From Candidatus Tepidifontimicrobium thermophilum (GTDB lineage Bacteria > Sysuimicrobiota > Sysuimicrobiia > Sysuimicrobiales > Sysuimicrobiaceae), in contig JAVKHO010000003.1 of NCBI GenBank assembly GCA_031459915.1, forward strand, positions 64,001 to 128,000: DNA of 64,000 nucleotides, read 5' to 3'. The notes beneath the pieces are model-generated. The model was not told the origin of the DNA, searched no databases, and saw only the letters and a list, made by a program, of their open reading frames with translations. Below, piece by piece: positions 50,601 to 64,000 of the stretch. The position numbers and the translations under genes are program-made. Within the stretch, counting starts at the first letter, position 1. Each line of letters begins with the position of its first letter.

Positions 50601-50948
50601 GTCGGCCAGAGCCCGCAGCCGTTCGCCCACCACCTCGGGGGCCGGGGGCAGGGGGTCGTGGGGCAAGACTTCCAACGGCGGCAAGTAGCGCAGGCGGTCC
50701 CGCAGGCCAGGCGCCAAGGCGGACAGGTCCTCTTGCAACGACTCCCCGGCGTCCCGGCCGGGCACAAGGATCAGGGCTGGCCGCGGAGGCCCCCACACCA
50801 GAAGATCCGCCAGGAGAAGGCTCTTCGCCCCCTGCGCGGGCACAAGGGCCCACGCGCGGGCGGGCGGCCGGGACATGACGTCCCGCAGCTCGTGCAGCCG
50901 CGGCCAGTTGCGGGTCAGCTGCAGCAGGCCTTCGAACGACAACGCCAC
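47637..50948 (-). CDS. mfd: Transcription-repair coupling factor
   Basis: RGGIVD, VVH..HG.GRY, GDVGYGKTE, DEEQRFG, TATPIPRTL, QLRGRVGR, RGAGN; start approximate. Confidence 0.97.
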   Translation of the reverse strand: MALSFEGLLQLTRNWPRLHELRDVMSRPPARAWALVPAQGAKSLLLADLLVWGPPRPALILVPGRDAGESLQEDLSALAPGLRDRLRYLPPLEVLPHDPLPPAPEVVGERLRALADLASGLPVVILAPVATACRPVPAASALGSVRKQVRVGEEVPLEAVVRYLQEGGYDRVDLVQTRGTYAVRGGIVDVFPPDADRPWRLEWFGDLVDSIRRFDPETQRSEAKADCAELPLASEPEGNALLLDLFPPQTLVVLDEPAELEAQARSVYRAARETEGQHQAKPAYVPWEAVLAAADRRCLMAVSAYHGAPEGWRGFEVPVQPVEAFAGQTAFLADQVRRWLGSGQRVVLVSAQAGRLSEILADHGIPVDPCPGLDSPPAAGLAVSVPGGLSRGFRVPDLQLVVVTDAEVLGWKRRRRRLRVAKDGTAVRSWSELEPGDLVVHVHHGVGRYRGVVRKAVAGAERDYLHLEYAEGDALFVPTDQIHLVQRYVGVEGHTPRIHRLGTADWEREKRRVREATEQVARELLELYARRQAARGFAFSPDTPWQRELEASFEFEETPDQWKAIEDVKRDMESPKPMDRLVAGDVGYGKTEVAVRAAFKAVMDGKQVAVLVPTTLLAQQHWQVFRTRFAAFPVRVEMVSRFRSPREVRRVLEDLAAGTVDVVIGTHRLLQKDVRFKDLGLVIIDEEQRFGVLHKERLKQLRASVDVLTLTATPIPRTLHMSLVGLRDMSLMETPPDARQPIRTTVAEWSEALVQEAIRRELARGGQVYVVHNRVNTIERAARRVQALVPEARVAVAHGQMPESQLERVMLDFVAGRYDVLVCTTIVEIGLDIPRVNTILVEEAHTLGLAQLYQLRGRVGRADQQAYAYLLYPRGAQLGEEARARLEALREFVALGSGIRLAMRDLEIRGAGNLLGPEQHGHMAAVGFDLYTRLLDEAIRRLRGEFVEEAPDPVVELRVSAYLPESYVPQERERLAAYRRLATARSPQEVVAVEEELRDRYGPLPEPARNLVQVAALREMARGLGISALVRESRGVLVRARDRVPTREIRWLALEYRGRVQGVPEGLLVCVDTTDDARVLHLLRDVLDSWAALRHRRPQPVTA

Positions 50949-51471: not shown

Positions 51472-52911
51472 TCAGATGTCGAAGTACAGGTAGAACTCGT
51501 ACGGGTGGGGGCGGATGTTCACCTCGTGGAGCTCCCGCTCCCGCTTGTACGCGATCCACGTGTCCAGAAGGTCCCGGGTGAACACGTCGCCCTCCAACAG
51601 GAACTCGCAGTCCGCCTCCAGCGCGTCCAGCACCGCGGCCAGCGAACCGGGCACGCTCTTCACCTTCGCCGCTTCCTCGGGCGGGAGCTCGTACGTGTTC
51701 ACGTCCAGGGGGCCGAAGGGAGAGGGGTCCAGCTTGCGGCGGACGCCGTCCAGGCCGGCCATGAGCATGGCGGCAAAGGCCAGGTACGGGTTGCAGCTGG
51801 GGTCCGGCGGCCGGAACTCGATGCGCTTGCTGGCTGCCGACTCCGCGCCGAAGTGGTACATGGGGATCCGGACGCAGGCGCTGCGGTTCCGCTTGCTGAA
51901 CGCCACGTTCACGGGTGCCTCGTAGTGGGGGACCAGCCGCTTGTAGGAGTTGGTGGTGGGGCTGGTGAGGCCCAGCAGGGCGTCCACGTGGGTGAGCAGG
52001 CCCGCCACGTAGTGGAGGGCGAGGGGGCTCAGCTCCGCGTAGCCCCCCTCCCCGTAGAACAGGTTCCGTCCGTCCTTCCACAGGCTCTGGTGGGTGTGCA
52101 TGCCGTTGCCGTTGTCCCCGAATAGAGGTTTCGGCATGAAGGTCACCGTGCAGCCGTGGCGGCGGGCCACGTTGCGCATGACGTACTTGTACACCATCAC
52201 CTTGTCGGCCATGCGGACCAGGGTATCCCGCTCCATGTCCACCTCCGCCTGGCCGGCGGTGGCCACCTCGTGGTGGTGCATCTCCACGGGGATCCCGATC
52301 TGCTCCAGGATCAGCGCCGCCTCGCTGCGGATGTCCTGGAAGGTGTCGCTGGGCGGCGCGGGGAAGTAACCCTCCTTGGGCCGGATCTTGTAGCCCAGGT
52401 TCTTGCCCTCCCCGTTGCCGCTGTTCCAGATCCCCTCCCGGCTGTCAATGCAGTACCCCGACCGGTGGGGGGTCACCTCGTACGTCACGTGGTCGAAGAT
52501 GAAGAACTCGATCTCCGGCCCCCAGAAGCTTGTGTCCGCGATCCCCGTCTCCTTCAGGTAGGCCTCCGCCTTACGGGCCACGTACCGGGGGTCGCGGGAG
52601 TACGGTGCCCGGGTCTCGGGGTCCACCACGTCGCAGATCATCACGAGGGTCGGAATTTCCAGGAAGGGGTCCACGAAGGCGGTGTTGGGGTCGGGCAGCA
52701 GGAGCATGTCGCTCTCCTGGATGGCCTGAAAGCCCCGGATGCTGCTCCCGTCGAACCCGATCCCCTTGGTGAAGGTGGACAGGTCCACCTGGGAGGCGGG
52801 GACCGAAGCGTGCTGCCACGTCCCCGGTAGGTCGGTGAACCGCAAGTCCACGATCTGGACCCCCTTCTCCTTGATCAGGGCCAGCACGTCGCTGGGCGTC
52901 CTGGGAACCAT
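51472..52911 (-). CDS. glnA: Glutamine synthetase type I
   Basis: FDGSSI, HHEVA, FMPKP, GNGMH, NSYKRL, NRSA, RIEFR; adenylylation-site-like DVNTYEL. Confidence 0.97.
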   Translation of the reverse strand: MVPRTPSDVLALIKEKGVQIVDLRFTDLPGTWQHASVPASQVDLSTFTKGIGFDGSSIRGFQAIQESDMLLLPDPNTAFVDPFLEIPTLVMICDVVDPETRAPYSRDPRYVARKAEAYLKETGIADTSFWGPEIEFFIFDHVTYEVTPHRSGYCIDSREGIWNSGNGEGKNLGYKIRPKEGYFPAPPSDTFQDIRSEAALILEQIGIPVEMHHHEVATAGQAEVDMERDTLVRMADKVMVYKYVMRNVARRHGCTVTFMPKPLFGDNGNGMHTHQSLWKDGRNLFYGEGGYAELSPLALHYVAGLLTHVDALLGLTSPTTNSYKRLVPHYEAPVNVAFSKRNRSACVRIPMYHFGAESAASKRIEFRPPDPSCNPYLAFAAMLMAGLDGVRRKLDPSPFGPLDVNTYELPPEEAAKVKSVPGSLAAVLDALEADCEFLLEGDVFTRDLLDTWIAYKRERELHEVNIRPHPYEFYLYFDI

Positions 52912-52962
52912 CTGTTGCACCTCCCGTCCGGTCTTTTTTGCGCGAACGCCGAAGACTCGCGG

Positions 52963-53065
52963 AAACACAAAGACGCCCCGGCGCCGCAAGGGCGCGGGGC
53001 GTCGTGGCCCACGCAGTGCTATTCAGCTCGGCGTGTTTATACCACAGACGTGGGTGGGCCGTCAA
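52963..53065 (-). promoter_or_regulatory. glnA promoter plus attenuator (hexaloop hairpin overlapping a terminator)
   Basis: TTGACG-N18-TATAAA; GGGC-CACGAC-GCCC (52997-53010) overlaps terminator stem 52972-53003 followed by TTTGTGTTT. Confidence 0.8.
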
Positions 53066-53169
53066 ACCTCCTCTTCGGCCCGCCCCGCCCGCCGCAGGAG
53101 ACGGCTGGGCAGCACCACCCACGCGCAGAACAACAGCACGAACGAACCGAGGGCGATCCACGCTTCCAC
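53062..53169 (-). CDS. 35-aa single-TM small protein (not in the ORF track)
   Basis: AAAGGAGG 8 nt before GTG; MEAWIALGSFVLLFCAWVVLPSRLLRRAGRAEEEV*. Confidence 0.75.
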   Translation of the reverse strand: MEAWIALGSFVLLFCAWVVLPSRLLRRAGRAEEEV

Positions 53170-53212
53170 AGGTCTGACCTCCTTTCCGTCGGGCGTTTTC
53201 CGGTCTTCTGGG

Positions 53213-54583
53213 CTACGACCCGGCGCCCGCCAGCGCGGGCTCCAGGGCGTAGGCGGGCGTGCCGTGCTCGGGAATGTCCAGGCCCTGCAGCTCCTCCTCC
53301 CGGGAGGCCCGCAGGCCGATGGTGGCCCGGATGAGGGCGAACATCACGTAGCCGGTGGCGAGGGTCCAGAGGGTGACCGCCCCCATGCTGATGAGCTGGG
53401 CCACCAGCTGGCCGGTCTCGCCCACGATGAGGCCCCGCACGTTCCCGTACGTCCCGTCCGCGAAGATCCCCACGGCCAGCAGCCCCCACAGACCCCCTGC
53501 GGCGTGCACCGACACCGCGCCCACGGGGTCGTCCACCTTCAGGACCCGCTCCACGAAGCCCAGACTCCACATCATCACCAGTGCGGCCACCCCGCCGATG
53601 ACCACGGCGGCCCAGGTTGGGACGTACGCGCACGGCGCGGTGATGCCCACGAGGCCGGCGAGAGCCCCGTTGCAGGCCATGGCGATGTCGGCTTTGCCGG
53701 TGCGGGCCAGGGTCGCGTACAGGGCCACTACGCCACCCGCGGCACCCGCGAGGAAGGTGTTCACCGCCACCACGGAGATCCGCAGGTCGGTGGCGGCCAG
53801 GGTGCTGCCCGGGTTGAACCCGAACCAGCCGAAGAACAGGATGAAGGTCCCCGTGACCACGTAGGCCATGTTGTGACCCGGGATGGGGTTCGGCGTGCCG
53901 TCGGGATTGAACTTCCCGATGCGCGGGCCCACCATGGCGGCACCCACCAACCCCAGAAGCCCGCCCACCGCGTGGACCACGCCCGAGCCCGCGAAGTCCC
54001 GCGCCCCGACGCCGAAGGGGAGGTTCGCCAGCCACCCGCCGCCCCACACCCAATGGCCGTAGATGGGGTAAATCAGGGCGCTCACCAGGAAGCTGTAGGC
54101 CAGGTAGGCTTGGATCTTGGTGCGCTCCGCCATGGCCCCGGCCACGATGGTGGCCGCGGTGGCCGCGAACACCATCTGGAAGAACCAGTACAGGGCCGTG
54201 GTGACGTCGTAGGCGGCGCCGCTCAGGAAGAAGCCGGACAGACCGACCCACGGCGTCCCGTGCTCCAGGCCGCTGGCGAGCTTGCTGCCGCCGAACATGA
54301 GGGCAAACCCGAACGCCCAGTAGCTGAGGGCCGCGATACTGAAGTCCATGTAGCTCTTCGTCAGGTAATTGACGGTGTTCTTGGACCGGATCAACCCGGC
54401 GCCTAGCAGGGCGAAGCCCGCCTGCATGAAGAACACCAGGAAGGCCGCTACGAGGGTCCAGGTGAAGTTCACCGCGGAGTTGGGGTCCGCCTTGAAGGTG
54501 GTGGTCCCCGTGGGGTCTGCAGCCCACGCGGCGGGGGTACAGGCCAGCAGCAGGGCTGCGGCCAGGGTCCAGGCTCTCCGCAT
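53213..54583 (-). CDS. amtB: Ammonium transporter
   Basis: FFMQAGF, AER, DFAGSGVVH, WFGFN, DDPVGAVSVH (twin His). Confidence 0.96.
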   Translation of the reverse strand: MRRAWTLAAALLLACTPAAWAADPTGTTTFKADPNSAVNFTWTLVAAFLVFFMQAGFALLGAGLIRSKNTVNYLTKSYMDFSIAALSYWAFGFALMFGGSKLASGLEHGTPWVGLSGFFLSGAAYDVTTALYWFFQMVFAATAATIVAGAMAERTKIQAYLAYSFLVSALIYPIYGHWVWGGGWLANLPFGVGARDFAGSGVVHAVGGLLGLVGAAMVGPRIGKFNPDGTPNPIPGHNMAYVVTGTFILFFGWFGFNPGSTLAATDLRISVVAVNTFLAGAAGGVVALYATLARTGKADIAMACNGALAGLVGITAPCAYVPTWAAVVIGGVAALVMMWSLGFVERVLKVDDPVGAVSVHAAGGLWGLLAVGIFADGTYGNVRGLIVGETGQLVAQLISMGAVTLWTLATGYVMFALIRATIGLRASREEELQGLDIPEHGTPAYALEPALAGAGS

Positions 54584-54595
54584 CTGCTCCTCCCG

Positions 54596-54721
54596 AAAAG
54601 GCGAAGGACGCCCCGGAGGGCGTCCCGGCCCGAAGTTGCCGAAAAGCGAAGGCCGGGACGTCCGAAGTTGCGGGCGTCCCGGCCCTGCTCACAGCATAGC
54701 AGCGCGCCCCAAGGATGTCAA
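54596..54721 (-). promoter_or_regulatory. amt promoter plus tandem attenuators
   Basis: TTGACA-N17-TATGCT; two GGGC-CGGGAC-GCCC hairpins (54672-54685, 54618-54631), each overlapping a terminator stem with a U-rich tail. Confidence 0.82.
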
Positions 54722-55305
54722 CGGGTTTTCGGTTTCGGTTTGGGCGGCTGGGAGACGATCTCCTCGTGCACCAGCACCGCTTGCGCCACCTCCCGCATCG
54801 GGCGCCTCAGGTTCCGGCTGCGGCGCTGCAGCAGCCGGTACGCCTCCTCCTCACCGAGGCCCAGGCGCCGCATGAGCACGCCCTTCGCCCGCTCCACCAG
54901 CTTGCGGGTCTCCAGAGCCTCGCGGGCTTCCTGCAGGTCACGCCACCGGGCCCACGCCAGCTCCACCGCGGCCAGCAGCTCCGCCCCCACCACAGGCTTC
55001 ACCACGTAGCCGAAGCCGCCTGCCGCCGCAGCCGCTTCCAGGAGCCCGCGGTCGCCGAAGGCGGTCAGGAACACCACCGGCCGAGGAGACGTCTCCCGAA
55101 GGCGGCGGGCTACCTCGATGCCGTCGGGAGGGGGCATGCGTACGTCCAGAACCACCAGGTCGGGGTCGTGGGAGCGGACCAGCTCCAGGCACTCCTCCCC
55201 GTTGGCCGCTTCCCCCACTACCCGGTAGCCTGCGTCCTCCAGGATGGCCCGCACGCCCATGCGGACCACGGCCTCGTCTTCCGCGATCACGATCCGCTTG
55301 CTCAC
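54718..55305 (-). CDS. Response regulator, REC + ANTAR RNA-binding domain (EutV/PdtaR/NitR-like)
   Basis: AEDE, LDVRMP (phosphoacceptor Asp), VKP; ANTAR LETRKLVERAKGVLM..EEEAY..L..S..PMREVA. Confidence 0.95.
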   Translation of the reverse strand: MSKRIVIAEDEAVVRMGVRAILEDAGYRVVGEAANGEECLELVRSHDPDLVVLDVRMPPPDGIEVARRLRETSPRPVVFLTAFGDRGLLEAAAAAGGFGYVVKPVVGAELLAAVELAWARWRDLQEAREALETRKLVERAKGVLMRRLGLGEEEAYRLLQRRSRNLRRPMREVAQAVLVHEEIVSQPPKPKPKTR

Positions 55306-55328
55306 CGCATCCCTCCTCTTGCGGGTTC

Positions 55329-55454
55329 AAAACAAAAGCGCCCCCGGCTTCGGGGGCGTCGTGGCCTCCGGAAAACGGCGACGCCGGCGGGTACCGCCGG
55401 CGTCGTGGCCTGGGATTTCGAAGTCAGGCTAGCGGCCCGTGGGGGCCCTGTCAA
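55329..55454 (-). promoter_or_regulatory. ANTAR-regulator promoter plus tandem attenuators
   Basis: TTGACA-N17-TAGCCT; two GGC-CACGAC-GCC hairpins (55399-55410, 55355-55366), each overlapping a terminator (55379-55405; 55339-55358 plus CTTTTGTTTT). Confidence 0.82.
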
Positions 55455-58400: not shown

Positions 58401-59857
58401 GGCGGCGTGTCGTCTCCCATGGAGCCCACCGCGTCCTTGCCGTCTGCGGCCATGGCCTGCAACACCCGCTGCAGGTCCTCCTTTGTGTAACCGAAGGCGA
58501 GGTGCAGAAGATGCAGGGACCCACCCGCGTGCGTCCGGGGCTGCGGCTTGGGGTCCACGCGCACCAGACGCTCCACCCACTTGGCGTACGGCTGGCGCGA
58601 GGCCAGTCGGTGGCGGATCTCGGGGTGGTGGAGAAGCTGGCGCGCCTCCAGGTCCACCACGACCATGTGGCCTGGCCCCAGCCGCCCGCGCTCAAGGACC
58701 CGCCCGGGAGCGATGGGCAGCACCCCTACCTCGGAGGCGGCCACCACCAGGCCGTCGCGGGTGACGGTGTAGCGGGCGGGACGCAGGCCGTTGCGATCCA
58801 GGGCCATGCCCACCGTGCGCCCGTCGAAGAAGGCCAGCGCCGCGGGGCCGTCCCACGGTTCGGCCAGGCACGCGTGGTACCGGTAGAATCCGCGCACGGA
58901 ACCATCGAGCTCCCACGCGCCCTCCCATGCCTCGGGGACCAGCATCCGCAGCGCGTGCGGCAGGTCCCGGCCACTGCGGCGCAGCAGCTCCAGCACGTTG
59001 TCCAGCATGGCGCTGTCGCTGCCGCCGTCCTGGATCACGGGGAGCAGCTCTTGCAACCGGTCCCCCCACAGGCTGCTGGACAGGGCGCCCTCCCGCGCCC
59101 GCATCCAGTTCACGTTGCCCAGCAGAGTGTTGATCTCGCCGTTGTGGGCCAGCAGGCGGAAGGGCTGCGCCAGCTGCCACGAGGGGTTGGTGTTGGTGCT
59201 GTAACGCTGGTGGAACACCGCGGCCCGGACCGCGAAGTCCGGGTCCTGCAGGTCCAGGTAGAAGCGCTCCAGCTGCGGAGCGGAAACCAGGGCCTTGTAC
59301 ACCACGGTGCGGGACGAAAGCGAGGGGACGTACAGGCCGAGGGGCGCTGCGCGTTTCTCTATGCGGCGCCGGACCAGGTACAGGTGCCGCTCCAGGGCCT
59401 CCGGGTCCAGATCAGGGGACGCGGTCAAAAGCGCCTGCTGGATGCGGGGCAGAGTGCGCAGCGCGTACTCGCCTAGGGCTTTGGGCTGCACGGGCGGGGT
59501 GCGCCATCCCAACAGGTGCAGGCCCGCGCGATGGAACTCCTCCTCGCACACCGCGCGGCAGGCCCGGTACACCTCCTCCTCCGCTGGGAAGAAGAAGACA
59601 CCGACCGCCAGAGGCCGCTCGTCGCCGCGGCAGCCCATCTCCCGCAGCACCCGGGCGAACAGCCCGTGCGGGATCTCCGTGAGCACCCCCGCCCCGTCCC
59701 CCGTGCGGCCGTCCGCAGCCTGCGCGCCCCGGTGGGCCAGGTTGCGGAGGGCTGTCAGCGCCGCCTGCAGCACGGCGTGGGACGGGGCCGCGTCCAGCCG
59801 CGCTACGAACCCCACCCCGCACGCGTCGCGCTCAGGAAACGCTGCCAGAGACGTCAC
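55451..59857 (-). CDS. gltB: Glutamate synthase large subunit
   Basis: GTG 59857 with RBS; CGVGF N-terminal nucleophile, HQRYSTNT, KQVASGRFG, KPGEGG, CVMARQCH..CP, GXGXG repeats. Confidence 0.97.
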   Translation of the reverse strand: MTSLAAFPERDACGVGFVARLDAAPSHAVLQAALTALRNLAHRGAQAADGRTGDGAGVLTEIPHGLFARVLREMGCRGDERPLAVGVFFFPAEEEVYRACRAVCEEEFHRAGLHLLGWRTPPVQPKALGEYALRTLPRIQQALLTASPDLDPEALERHLYLVRRRIEKRAAPLGLYVPSLSSRTVVYKALVSAPQLERFYLDLQDPDFAVRAAVFHQRYSTNTNPSWQLAQPFRLLAHNGEINTLLGNVNWMRAREGALSSSLWGDRLQELLPVIQDGGSDSAMLDNVLELLRRSGRDLPHALRMLVPEAWEGAWELDGSVRGFYRYHACLAEPWDGPAALAFFDGRTVGMALDRNGLRPARYTVTRDGLVVAASEVGVLPIAPGRVLERGRLGPGHMVVVDLEARQLLHHPEIRHRLASRQPYAKWVERLVRVDPKPQPRTHAGGSLHLLHLAFGYTKEDLQRVLQAMAADGKDAVGSMGDDTPPSALSSHPRLLYQFFRQRFAQVTNPPIDPLRERVVMSLEVRLGPRRSFLEETPEHADLVELASPVLPDLDWLEEVPLKPCRLDATFEASRGPQGLQEALDRLCQQAAQAVREGCTALVLTDRGLSRERAPIPALLATAAVHHHLIRHGLRLSTALLVETGEAREVHHVACLVGYGAEGVYPYLALETAQKLSPQGAANLKKALEAGLLKVMAKMGIAPLQAYCGAQIFETIGLDRALVERYFPGTPNHAPGVDLAALARDVLERHAAYRRALDGEPATVPDVGFYRYRHGGEQHGFEPDVVKAIHRVSLNGAEEYPKLAQLVGSRPPQALRDLLEIRPAGPPVPLEEVEPVENILRRFVISAMSHGALSREAHETLAIAANRLGMRSNSGEGGEDPARRKVRPNGDWPNTTIKQVASGRFGVTAGYLRSAVELEIKMAQGSKPGEGGQLLGHKVTEEIARLRKTQPGTTLISPPPHHDIYSIEDLAQLIYDLKQVHPTAHVAVKLVATTGVGTIASGVAKGFADVVQISGHEGGTGASPLDSIKNAGLPWEVGLSEARRALSANGLRGRVRLRVDGGFKVGRDVVLAALLGADEFGFGTAALVALGCVMARQCHSNTCPVGIATQREDLRGKFPGTPERVEAYFRALAEDVRRQLAQLGARSLDEIVGRVDLLRVRDDVTLYRAERLDLSEILQPAEGETRGSFADPLSVEGRLNRLLVEQYRQTVEHGVPAEGHHPITNRDRTVGATLAGEIAQRWGEDGLPEGTLRLTFEGAAGQSFGAFCVPGMHLRLVGEANDYAGKGMSGGEIVIVPPPPLHRESWKHVIVGNTVLYGATGGVFFAAGRAGERFAVRNSGAVAVVEGAGDHCCEYMTGGVVVVLGPVGRNFGAGMTGGRAYVLDEAGVLDRQVNTDSVQTGPLAEEEAEELRALLVRYHEATGSHRAQSLLRRWLRAMGQFRAVRPRSAAEVPAQVAAREASAARPAR

Positions 59858-59895: not shown

Positions 59896-59941
59896 AAAGC
59901 CCGAGGGGGCCTCGGCTTGAGGAACCTCCCCCTCGGGCTTT
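59896..59941 (-). terminator. Riboswitch expression-platform hairpin
   Basis: 14-bp stem AAAGCCCGAGGGGG/CCCCCTCGGGCTTT that uses the aptamer 3' strand; weak U tail. Confidence 0.7.
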
Positions 59942-60034
59942 TGTCCCGACGGTGTAGCGAGTCCGGAAACCCGCCTGCGCCGCTCGGTCCAGGCCGGCCG
60001 GGGTTGGGCCGCGGAACCCTAGGCGCACTTCCTC
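59919..60034 (-). ncRNA. ykkC-yxkD-family riboswitch, probable ppGpp subtype (2a)
   Basis: GAGGAAGUG..CCUAGGGUUCCG..GGACCGAGCGG..ACACCGUCGGGACAAAAGCCCGAGGGGGAGGUUCCUC; P0 helix present; lies upstream of gltB. Confidence 0.88.
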
Positions 60035-63490: not shown

Positions 63491-63953
63491 GGGATCCCTG
63501 GACGGCCGTGGACTGCGGGTGGGCGTGGTGGCCAGCCGGTTCAACGAAGCCACCACGCGGTTGCTCGTGGAGGGAGCCCTGGACGGGCTCCGCCGGTGCG
63601 GGGTCGAGGAGGTGGACGTGGCTTGGGTCCCCGGGGCGTTCGAGATCCCTCTGGTGGCCGCCCGGCTAGCACGCTGCGGCCGCTACGACGCGGTGGTGTG
63701 CGTGGGCGCGGTGGTGCGCGGGCAGACTCCCCACTTCGAGTACGTAGCCGGCCACAGCGCGGCCGGCATCGCCCGGGCGGCGCTGGATAGCGGCGTTCCC
63801 GTGCTGTACGGGGTGGTGACCGCGGACGACCCGCAGCAGGCAGCCGAGCGGGCGGGCGGGAAGGCCGGGAACCGGGGCCGCGACGCAGCCCTGGCCGCGG
63901 TGGAGATGGCCACCCTCCTGCGCCAGCTCCGCGCCGAGGTGGAGGCGGGCTAG
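63471..63953 (+). CDS. ribH: Lumazine synthase
   Basis: SRFN, VPGAFEIP, RGQTPHFEYV, ERAGGKAGN. Confidence 0.96.
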
Positions 63954-64000
63954 CGGGAGGTCTCGCCGAGGATCTCCCGAGCCACCTCCCGCATGGGGCG
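63950..64000 (-). CDS. 3' end of a probable second ANTAR-domain protein (partial)
   Basis: RPMREVAREILGETSR*, compared with RPMREVAQAVL in the REC-ANTAR protein. Confidence 0.55.
   Translation of the reverse strand, partial: RPMREVAREILGETSR

Follow-up and report, generated by a model that had tools for sequence, protein, structure and literature searches.

Few RNA-binding response regulators are as widespread as ANTAR proteins, and the RNA code that they read is, to our knowledge, based on few systems, all of which are dual hairpins with A at position 1 and G at position 4 of the loop (A1/G4). In the published targets, two hexaloop hairpins with A1/G4 loops lie 5-12 nucleotides (nt) apart, and the second overlaps a terminator (PMC3369931, PMC8164766). 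Control by ANTAR proteins has already been reported for glutamine synthetase, ammonium transporters, PII, and glutamate synthase; Table S2 of Ramesh et al. (2012) mentions glutamine synthetase 25 times and ammonium transporter 18 times, glnA-ANTAR pairs are found in Alkaliphilus and Thermaerobacter, and D. acetoxidans has 13 attenuators in 6 units (PMC3369931). In Geobacter sulfurreducens, the REC-ANTAR protein GnfR is required for terminator read-through in the leaders of nifH, glnK, and amtB, and the element CAGGCAANGGCGCC, read as GGC-AANGGC-GCC, overlaps those terminators (PMC2995071). Walshe et al. (2022) reported that an ANTAR dimer contacts one hexaloop and redefined the minimal site accordingly; they kept the first hairpin, P1, as a recruitment hairpin for antitermination, urged a search for lone hexaloops, and expected these where the timing of the polymerase is immaterial (PMC8934654). 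Here, we describe hexaloop hairpins, each on its own predicted terminator, in a nitrogen locus of Candidatus Tepidifontimicrobium thermophilum (phylum Sysuimicrobiota, CSP1-3). The window, i.e., the whole stretch of 64,000 nt that was analysed, is G000:C23:64001-128000 of an assembly of 2.6 Mb with 71% G+C in 33 contigs (G, C, L, and f numbers are our handles for genomes, contigs, loci, and families). All genes of the region, which are gltB, a REC-ANTAR gene, amt, a small hydrophobic open reading frame (ORF), and glnA, are on the minus strand.

Hexaloop hairpins and predicted terminators in the nitrogen leaders

A first-pass annotation of this DNA had described five copies of a hexaloop hairpin on the minus strand, all of which we could confirm. 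The 12-mer GGCC-R-S-GACGCC occurs twice in the leader of the REC-ANTAR gene, twice in that of amt, and once in that of glnA, in each case as a pattern match and as a fold: regulator-leader hairpins M1 (55399-55410) and M2 (55355-55366) both read GGC-CACGAC-GCC, amt hairpins M1 (54672-54685) and M2 (54618-54631) both read GGGC-CGGGAC-GCCC, and the glnA hairpin (52997-53010) reads GGGC-CACGAC-GCCC. The window contains 6 matches to the pattern GGCCRSGACGCC where 0.52 would be expected (standard deviation, 0.70; largest, 3), and 0 of 100 shuffles gave as many as 6. Five of the six matches are on the sense strand in leaders of nitrogen genes or the regulator gene; the remaining one, at 50748-50759 (-), falls within the mfd reading frame, lacks a terminator, and was therefore taken as a chance match.

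Genome-wide, the strict motif has 27 matches, of which 6, all in nitrogen leaders, have a terminator, while the other 21 were judged terminator-less by eye from 60 printed nt. The match outside the window among these six, G000:C7:38116-38127, follows the boxes TTGACA-16-TACGCT and precedes a second amt gene, and the genome thus holds six modules in four leaders instead of the five copies first described. All five window copies and the sixth copy have a stem of 3-4 bp and a 6-nt loop. The stem is GGC/GCC, extended to GGGC/GCCC in 4 of the 6; the loop is CACGAC or CGGGAC, with G at position 4 in 6/6. As the annotation had noted, loop position 1 is C in every copy (6/6 genomic copies), so that the A1 of the published ANTAR targets is missing.

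In every copy, the GACGCC half of the hairpin is shared with a terminator, as first described: of the 12 motif bases, 10-11 serve as 5' pairing partners in the minimum-energy folds of the module stretches (49-59 nt). The small hairpin and the terminator are mutually exclusive, and the 3' part of the hairpin alternatively pairs into the terminator. In the regulator leader, terminator T1 (55372-55405 (-)) shares GACGCC with M1 and has a 12-bp G+C stem (55405-55379) followed by GUUUUCC, while T2 (55329-55358 (-)) has eight G-C pairs (55358-55339) followed by CUUUUGUUUU. In the amt leader, GGCCGGGACG pairs with CGUCCCGGCC to form T1 (54641-54684 (-)), which is followed by UUCGCUUUUC and uses nearly all of M1 as its 5' arm; T2 (54590-54630 (-)) is followed by UUUUCGGGAGG, which reaches into the ribosome-binding site. 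In the glnA leader, the terminator (52963-53003 (-)) is formed by GACGCCCCG... pairing with ...CGGGGCGUC and is followed by UUUGUGUUU. The minimum-free-energy folds of the three leaders are these terminator hairpins, with z-scores of -4.7 for the regulator leader and -4.6 for the amt leader. The small hairpins have -2.4 to -5.7 kcal/mol versus -21 to -36 kcal/mol for the module-stretch folds, which include some pairing outside the terminator stem. Once T2 of amt forms, CUUC before M2 is predicted to pair with GGAG of the ribosome-binding site (54632-54637 with 54590-54596 (-)), and this pairing would add a translational block; the bases at this position are ACUUCG in five of seven amt leaders and ACAUCG in the other two.

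The sigma70-type promoters proposed in the annotation stand in part. Promoter-like boxes are visible by eye upstream of all three leaders, while a strict promoter scan lists that of amt alone (TTGACA-17-TATGCT at 54693-54721 (-), 10/12 matches), the -35 box of which overlaps the stop codon of the regulator gene. The boxes of the REC-ANTAR gene are TTGACA-17-TAGCCT at 55426-55454 (-) (-35 at 55454-55449 and -10 at 55431-55426), with the -35 box overlapping the gltB stop codon, and those of glnA are TTGACG-18-TATAAA at 53036-53065 (-). Each of the six genomic modules is in sense orientation, downstream of a promoter-like site (at about +8 to +70 from the promoter) and upstream of a start codon. 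This placement bears on the possibility that the element has a different reader, such as another RNA-binding protein, a small-molecule aptamer, or a DNA-binding dimer. Such a reader would fit with GGC-N6-GCC being a short inverted repeat in DNA and with the departure of C1 from the published ANTAR consensus. We consider it very unlikely, because the modules keep to the sense strand (6/6) and lie at variable distances from the promoter, an element of 12-14 nt is too small for a known aptamer, 4 of the 21 module-led genes analysed across the phylum (see below) are REC-ANTAR genes, and all 41 genomes searched with the regulator protein have at least one REC-ANTAR match. An Rfam scan of the three leaders gave no family match even at E values up to 10, its five rows being at chance level.

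Based on this anatomy, i.e., a short stem, a hexaloop with G4, exclusion of a terminator, a local ANTAR gene, and nitrogen genes as targets, the modules are best read as ANTAR antiterminator sites, and we consider it likely that the hairpins are binding sites of a phosphorylated REC-ANTAR antiterminator for amt, glnA, and the regulator gene. If the protein is absent, the terminator would prevail, giving the off state. Under nitrogen limitation, a kinase would phosphorylate the regulator, which would dimerise and bind the nascent hairpin via a flipped-out G4, as in EutV, to give read-through; the bound protein would hold the hexaloop hairpin closed, and the overlapping terminator could then not form. 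Each module would act alone, as suggested by the existence of one-module leaders (glnA in 5/5 genus genomes, the second amt, L002, L011-L013, and most matches in the phylum), and two serial modules, as for amt and the regulator gene, would demand more active protein than the one of glnA, in line with the graded response that the annotation had suggested. The REC-ANTAR protein of the locus (paralogue A) would amplify its own synthesis once this is started by basal read-through or by a second protein, paralogue B, which would be paired with a GAF-GAF kinase and shares the RNA-contact signature of A.

Like the targets of EutV (E. faecalis eut), NasR (Klebsiella nasF), and AmiR (Pseudomonas amiE), the modules have a stem of at least 3 bp, a hexaloop with G4, a hairpin that excludes an intrinsic terminator, a REC-ANTAR gene nearby, and nitrogen genes as targets; unlike these targets, they have C1 in place of A1, a fixed A at position 5, and one hairpin per terminator, with paired hairpins each having their own terminator (PMC3369931). 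With the GnfK/GnfR site, they share the GGC/GCC stem, G4, and C6, whereas the Geobacter loop is A-A-N-G-G-C versus C-N-N-G-A-C here, and Geobacter has RpoN promoters and the master GnfL/GnfM system in contrast to the sigma-70-like boxes seen here in another phylum (PMC2995071). In EutV as analysed by Walshe et al., Tyr164 is the stacking partner of G4, which R142, K149, and E160 hold in place, and all of these residues are kept here; in contrast to the expectation from that work, the lone hexaloops here are directly on terminators, and Met172 is replaced by Arg (PMC8934654).

Conservation among relatives and across the phylum

We compared leaders in two ways. For the first, orthologous loci were chosen by protein and not by motif, from a search with the regulator protein in 41 genomes of the order. 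The regulator leader has two modules in five of six same-genus relatives and a single one in the sixth; among the five, the first module of L007 is degenerate, and the first stem is off-register in L004 and L005. The single module of L002 (protein 98% identical) consists of the 5' flank of M1 joined to the terminator of M2; compared with 55355-55410 of the window, this single module (L002/L031:2439) looks as if it had arisen by the loss or gain expected between identical 12-mers. The regulators of L002/L031 are 97-98% identical to that of the window. Two modules are present in the amt leaders of 7/7 genus genomes and one module in the glnA leaders of the 5/5 genus genomes whose locus reached there, with loops CACGAC, CUCGAC, and CGCGAC. 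In other genera, the hairpin lies between glnA and the ANTAR gene (L011-L013) or after a kinase-ANTAR pair and before glnA (L016, L018, and L019). Stem changes that preserve the small hairpin are GAC/GUC (L014), CGC/GCG (L010), and UGC/GCG (L006). Within the genus, covariation is minimal (3/28 and 0/31 predicted pairs with double changes), because the sequences are too close. The number of modules differs between close relatives.

These leaders also speak to the possibility of a canonical dual-hairpin site, in which the two hairpins of a leader would be P1 (for recruitment) and P2 (for antitermination) of one ANTAR substrate, joined by a long, structured linker, and the first "terminator" would be incidental. 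The two hairpins in each of the regulator and amt leaders would agree with this, as would the requirement of both stems for full antitermination by EutV (PMC3369931, PMC8934654), and the tandem arrangement is indeed seen in the regulator leader of L014, from another genus, where two C1-type hexaloops lie 4 nt apart and only the second is in a terminator. For the window, we regard it as unlikely. The gap between the hairpins, which holds a full terminator, measures 32 nt in the regulator leader and about 40 nt in that of amt, as opposed to 5-12 nt in eut, where lengthening to 14 nt cut induction (PMC3369931). The own stem and U-tract of the first amt hairpin are conserved in 7/7 amt leaders, and the glnA (5/5), second-amt, L002/L031, and L011-L013 leaders have one module. 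The hairpin of the amt and second-amt leaders starts so close behind the -10 box (about 7-8 nt) that an upstream partner would have no space. A second, upstream hexaloop was sought in the glnA leader and not found, the upstream hairpin there having a GAAU tetraloop; tandem hairpins with a short linker are lacking in the glnA and second-amt leaders, each with a single hairpin. Sequence and comparison thereby support the annotated arrangement of one terminator for each hairpin.

For the second comparison, a covariance model (R1) was trained on 18 modules and given the terminator helix as structure. In the genome of the window, R1 scores amt M2 at 59.4 bits and glnA at 46.9 bits, both being in the training set, and it finds three modules outside the training set: that of the second amt on C7 (42 bits, E value of 7e-7), regulator M2 (24.5 bits), and regulator M1 with T1 (20.8 bits, E value of 0.19). 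It misses amt M1, because the terminator of this module uses another register than the model. At an E value of ≤1e-4, R1 has 68 matches in 44 of the 94 genomes of the phylum (11/11 in family f1, 14/34 in f5, 10/22 in f2, and 8/23 in f4). Thirty loci were returned, of which nine were left out (seven amt leaders of the same genus and two loci for which the downstream DNA was too short); at the other 21, the first gene after the match is glnA in 7, a small ORF in 6, REC-ANTAR in 4, amt in 3, and GNAT in 1.

Across 39 aligned modules, GGCC, C at loop position 1, G4, and CGC are each present in 39/39 and A5 and the last C in 38/39 each, an invariance that is partly circular, as the 39 rows were found and aligned with the motif-trained model, while the compensation at inner pairs is not. 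Both exceptions are compensated in the 3' arm of the terminator, and loop positions 2-3 vary freely. The terminator helix is 99% paired, with compensatory changes at 4 of 8 pairs, which 0 of 500 shuffles reach; slid registers are 42-62% paired. The motif letters are thus constant across the phylum, while the rest of the terminator stem changes with compensation. This pattern would not be expected if the 12-mer were the 5' arm of a duplicated family of plain terminators that end transcripts or attenuate constitutively. Such a family would agree with the position of regulator T1 45 nt past the gltB stop, with the overlap of the amt promoter and the regulator stop codon, with the fall of RNA contig depth past gltB, and with the scarce covariation of the small hairpin stem. 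Yet the terminator stem starts at GACGCC in the common register and the GGCC before it, which a terminator could dispense with, is invariant in 39/39; the GACGCC arm never covaries, whereas neighbouring stem pairs do; the modules of glnA and the second amt stand behind promoter-like boxes of their own and not behind the end of a gene; and the downstream genes are almost all nitrogen or ANTAR genes. We therefore consider plain terminators highly improbable.

Several observations weigh against antitermination by an ANTAR protein. Position 1 of the loop is C, although mutation of position 1 weakened EutV binding (PMC3369931). The U-rich tails of the annotation are seen as a stem followed by a U-run, but a strict terminator scan, which required at least 5 T in 8, recovered only 2 of the 5, with the remaining U-tracts being short (4 U), and the fold of the glnA leader is not unusual (z-score of -1.5). 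R1 has a false match inside sufD at 27.5 bits, above both regulator-leader modules, and 50 of the 94 genomes have no R1 match at the E value used. In addition to the partial circularity of the motif's invariance, the small stem itself is nearly invariant with little covariation, its support coming from a few distant loci picked by eye. The motif followed by GGCGTC within 4-32 nt matched 85 among the 94 genomes, but this pattern is no commoner than its reversed control (5 versus 10 in the own genome), and the tally was for this reason discarded. The genome encodes three REC-ANTAR paralogues (A, B, and C), all of which are candidate binders, and in RNA library X12, the depth at the amt 3' end is well above that at the 5' end, which the model does not explain.

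With these points taken into account, the observation of the hairpin modules is confirmed and extended, and the ANTAR antitermination reading is well supported by comparison. A covariance-model scan, as the first-pass annotation had proposed, found the modules in 44/94 phylum genomes, and the motif is conserved in orthologous leaders (amt, 7/7; glnA, 5/5). The novelty is narrower than the annotation had claimed, because nitrogen control by ANTAR proteins, serial attenuators, and the single-hexaloop minimal site are in print (PMC3369931, PMC2995071, PMC8934654). A nitrogen regulon and serial attenuation are thus known, and what differs here is the C1-N-N-G4-A5-C6 loop, the phylum-wide one-hairpin module, and the variable copy number; a new mechanism is not revealed. 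We found no published account of C1-type loops or of this regulon in CSP1-3 in a search that covered few subscription journals and did not extend to the seed alignment of Ramesh 2012.

Candidate regulators and loop specificity

Where the annotation had spoken of a single regulator, there are three paralogues, two of which have their own kinases. Paralogue A (54718-55305 (-), 195 residues; Pfam Response_reg, 97.9 bits, and ANTAR, 78.6 bits) has no adjoining kinase gene. Of paralogue B, which is 56% identical to A, the last codons are at 63950-64000 (-) and the rest lies past the end of the window (L180); its gene is convergent with a rib operon and follows that of a GAF-GAF-HisKA_2 kinase. Paralogue C, on contig 31, follows a HisKA_2 kinase. 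The segment R-x-x-RRPMREVA is common to A and B and absent from C. Where families lack an A orthologue, a kinase-regulator pair of the B type directly precedes a module-led glnA, from which we infer that B is at least as good a candidate binder as A. The modules in the leader of the regulator gene, which the annotation had read as control of its own expression, are conserved in the same-genus relatives, and A may be an amplifier.

The nearest solved structures to paralogue A are Rv1626 (E value of 1.2e-42) and EutV (E value of 9.5e-35), and the alignment to EutV is gap-free across the ANTAR domain. The phospho-acceptor Asp54 is invariant in the alignments and aligns with Asp54 of EutV, which carries BeF3 (PMC8934654). 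Paralogue A keeps the EutV residues R142, K143, K149, E160, Y164, N173, and R175, the first five of which hold G4 in EutV (PMC8934654), and differs at K147 (Arg), R168 (Gln), M172 (Arg), and R177 (Pro). Met172 of EutV is a "plug" inside the hexaloop (PMC8934654). In a comparison of the residue at this position with the loop type, which is a small sample without phylogenetic control and in which the residue of L044 is unreadable, Arg is found in A, B, L010, and the Chloroflexota proteins L040 and L042, all with loop C1, and in L039 and L038, with no C1 hairpin seen in the leader position; Met is found in EutV and Rv1626, with published A1 loops, and in the Thermoanaerobacter homologue L045, with an A1 loop seen here; L043 also has Met. 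The A1 loop of the Thermoanaerobacter metagenome-assembled genome is part of GGC-AAGGGC-GUC, on a terminator beside its ANTAR gene. The Chloroflexota hairpins (CUC-C(A/G)CGAU-GAG; L040:2424-2435, L042:2445-2456, and L044:2415-2426) precede a REC-ANTAR gene, just past a TATAAT box, and have the same C1/G4/A5 loop on a different stem (CUC/GAG); the proteins are about 42% identical, and in L042, CUCC could instead pair with the ribosome-binding site.

Based on this distribution, it is conceivable, though we hold it only tentatively, that a branch of ANTAR proteins in CSP1-3/Sysuimicrobiota and at least some Chloroflexota has shifted its target code from A1-x-x-G4 to C1-x-x-G4-A5-Y6, along with a change of Met172 to Arg, and with one hexaloop per terminator as a complete switch. 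If true, modules would have been copied, lost, and stacked to set the dose of active regulator that each nitrogen gene needs, and the branch would supply a naturally orthogonal pair of ANTAR protein and RNA, as well as a counter-example to the view that a recruitment hairpin is needed.

Search models based on A1/G4 dual hairpins would miss the C1 class, and the finding widens the search model to a C1/G4/A5 loop with one hairpin per terminator, in an uncultured phylum and apparently in some Chloroflexota. It provides natural material on what lone hexaloops do, a question left open by Walshe et al. (PMC8934654), and offers the hypothesis that Arg in place of Met172 accompanies C in place of A at loop position 1. 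It also predicts switching of ammonium uptake and glutamine synthesis in a hot-spring lineage without a cultured member and points to a small protein of the same predicted regulon in sister families.

Neighbouring genes, RNA libraries, and further loci

The gene identities given in the annotation (REC-ANTAR, amt, and glnA) hold by Pfam. amt is at 53213-54583 (-) (Ammonium_transp, 413 bits), and glnA is at 51472-52914 (-) (Gln-synt_C, 429.8 bits, and Gln-synt_N). Between them, 3' of amt, the 35-codon hydrophobic ORF with its own ribosome-binding site is read from the sequence at 53062-53169 (-). gltB extends from 55451 to about 59857 (-), with a probable GTG start at 59857.

The wiring by the motif does not extend to gltB, the fourth nitrogen gene here. 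Its leader follows promoter-like boxes (TTGACA-17-TATCTA at about 60087-60059 (-)) and carries instead a ykkC-family aptamer (Rfam Guanidine-I, 59927-60033 (-)), which scores 63.3 bits against a gathering score of 63 and the last stem of which overlaps a long, 14-bp terminator-like hairpin. The context of a glutamate synthase presumably fits the subtype of the ykkC family that binds guanosine tetraphosphate (ppGpp). Having its own aptamer, gltB would be switched separately from amt and glnA, and to judge from its leader, it is outside the ANTAR-hairpin wiring. T1 of the regulator leader may serve gltB transcripts as a terminator as well.

Most of the locus is represented in the contigs of two RNA libraries (X12 and X13); such contigs can show neither ends, strand, nor level and are therefore weak hints only. 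In X12, the depth is about 33-61 at the gltB 3' end, 3-9 over the regulator leader and gene, 0 over the amt promoter and first module, and about 49 over glnA; along amt, it rises from 4 at the 5' end to about 58 at the 3' end. At regulator T1, it drops from about 61 to 3-5, a weak sign. In X13, one contig ends at 53015, near the predicted glnA start, and another ends at 54631, just past the first amt U-tract, both being likewise weak. Raw reads of RNA run X21 gave 10 reads from about 3 in 100 of the run. The depths are loosely and weakly consistent with closed attenuators before the regulator gene.

In the second amt operon, a homologue of the small hydrophobic ORF comes after amt, then a flotillin-like gene, and finally a second glnA, the start of which is only a few bases past the previous stop. 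The homologue is an ORF of 404 codons (G000:C7 from about 39560 onwards; L182:1660-2871), and the 35-codon ORF of the window is 58% identical over 33 residues to its start; the long form has no match to a Pfam family. A loose genome scan for a hairpin plus a T-run gave 916 matches, mostly noise in G+C-rich coding DNA, of which 41 were of the C..GA class. Six of these 41 have a GGC/GCC stem and a C..GAC loop, including C10:24172-24183, with a weak hairpin and tail; the scan missed regulator module M1, because this has only four U.

Directly 3' of a module in six genomes from two other families of the phylum, we observed a conserved ORF of 46-59 residues with the motif DPxxLWVGTWxPE and an acidic tail (L164:1354-1491, L165:956-1099, L168:1316-1492, L169:269-412, L170:1561-1701, and L179:1350-1493). 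It has no Pfam match, and tblastn and a six-frame regular-expression search found no such ORF in the genome of the window. The protein is predicted to belong to the same nitrogen regulon. Two f4 genomes (L162:920-1495 (-) and L166:1563-2138 (+)) have module-led REC-ANTAR genes with a divergent ANTAR domain (Pfam, 33-35 bits), in which Ala occupies the position of EutV Tyr164; one of their modules has GCU for GCC, compensated in the terminator. In one f4 genome, a module precedes a gene for a GNAT acetyltransferase (L173:1572-2084 (+)), and GNAT relatives of this kind include enzymes that acetylate glutamine-synthetase inhibitors.

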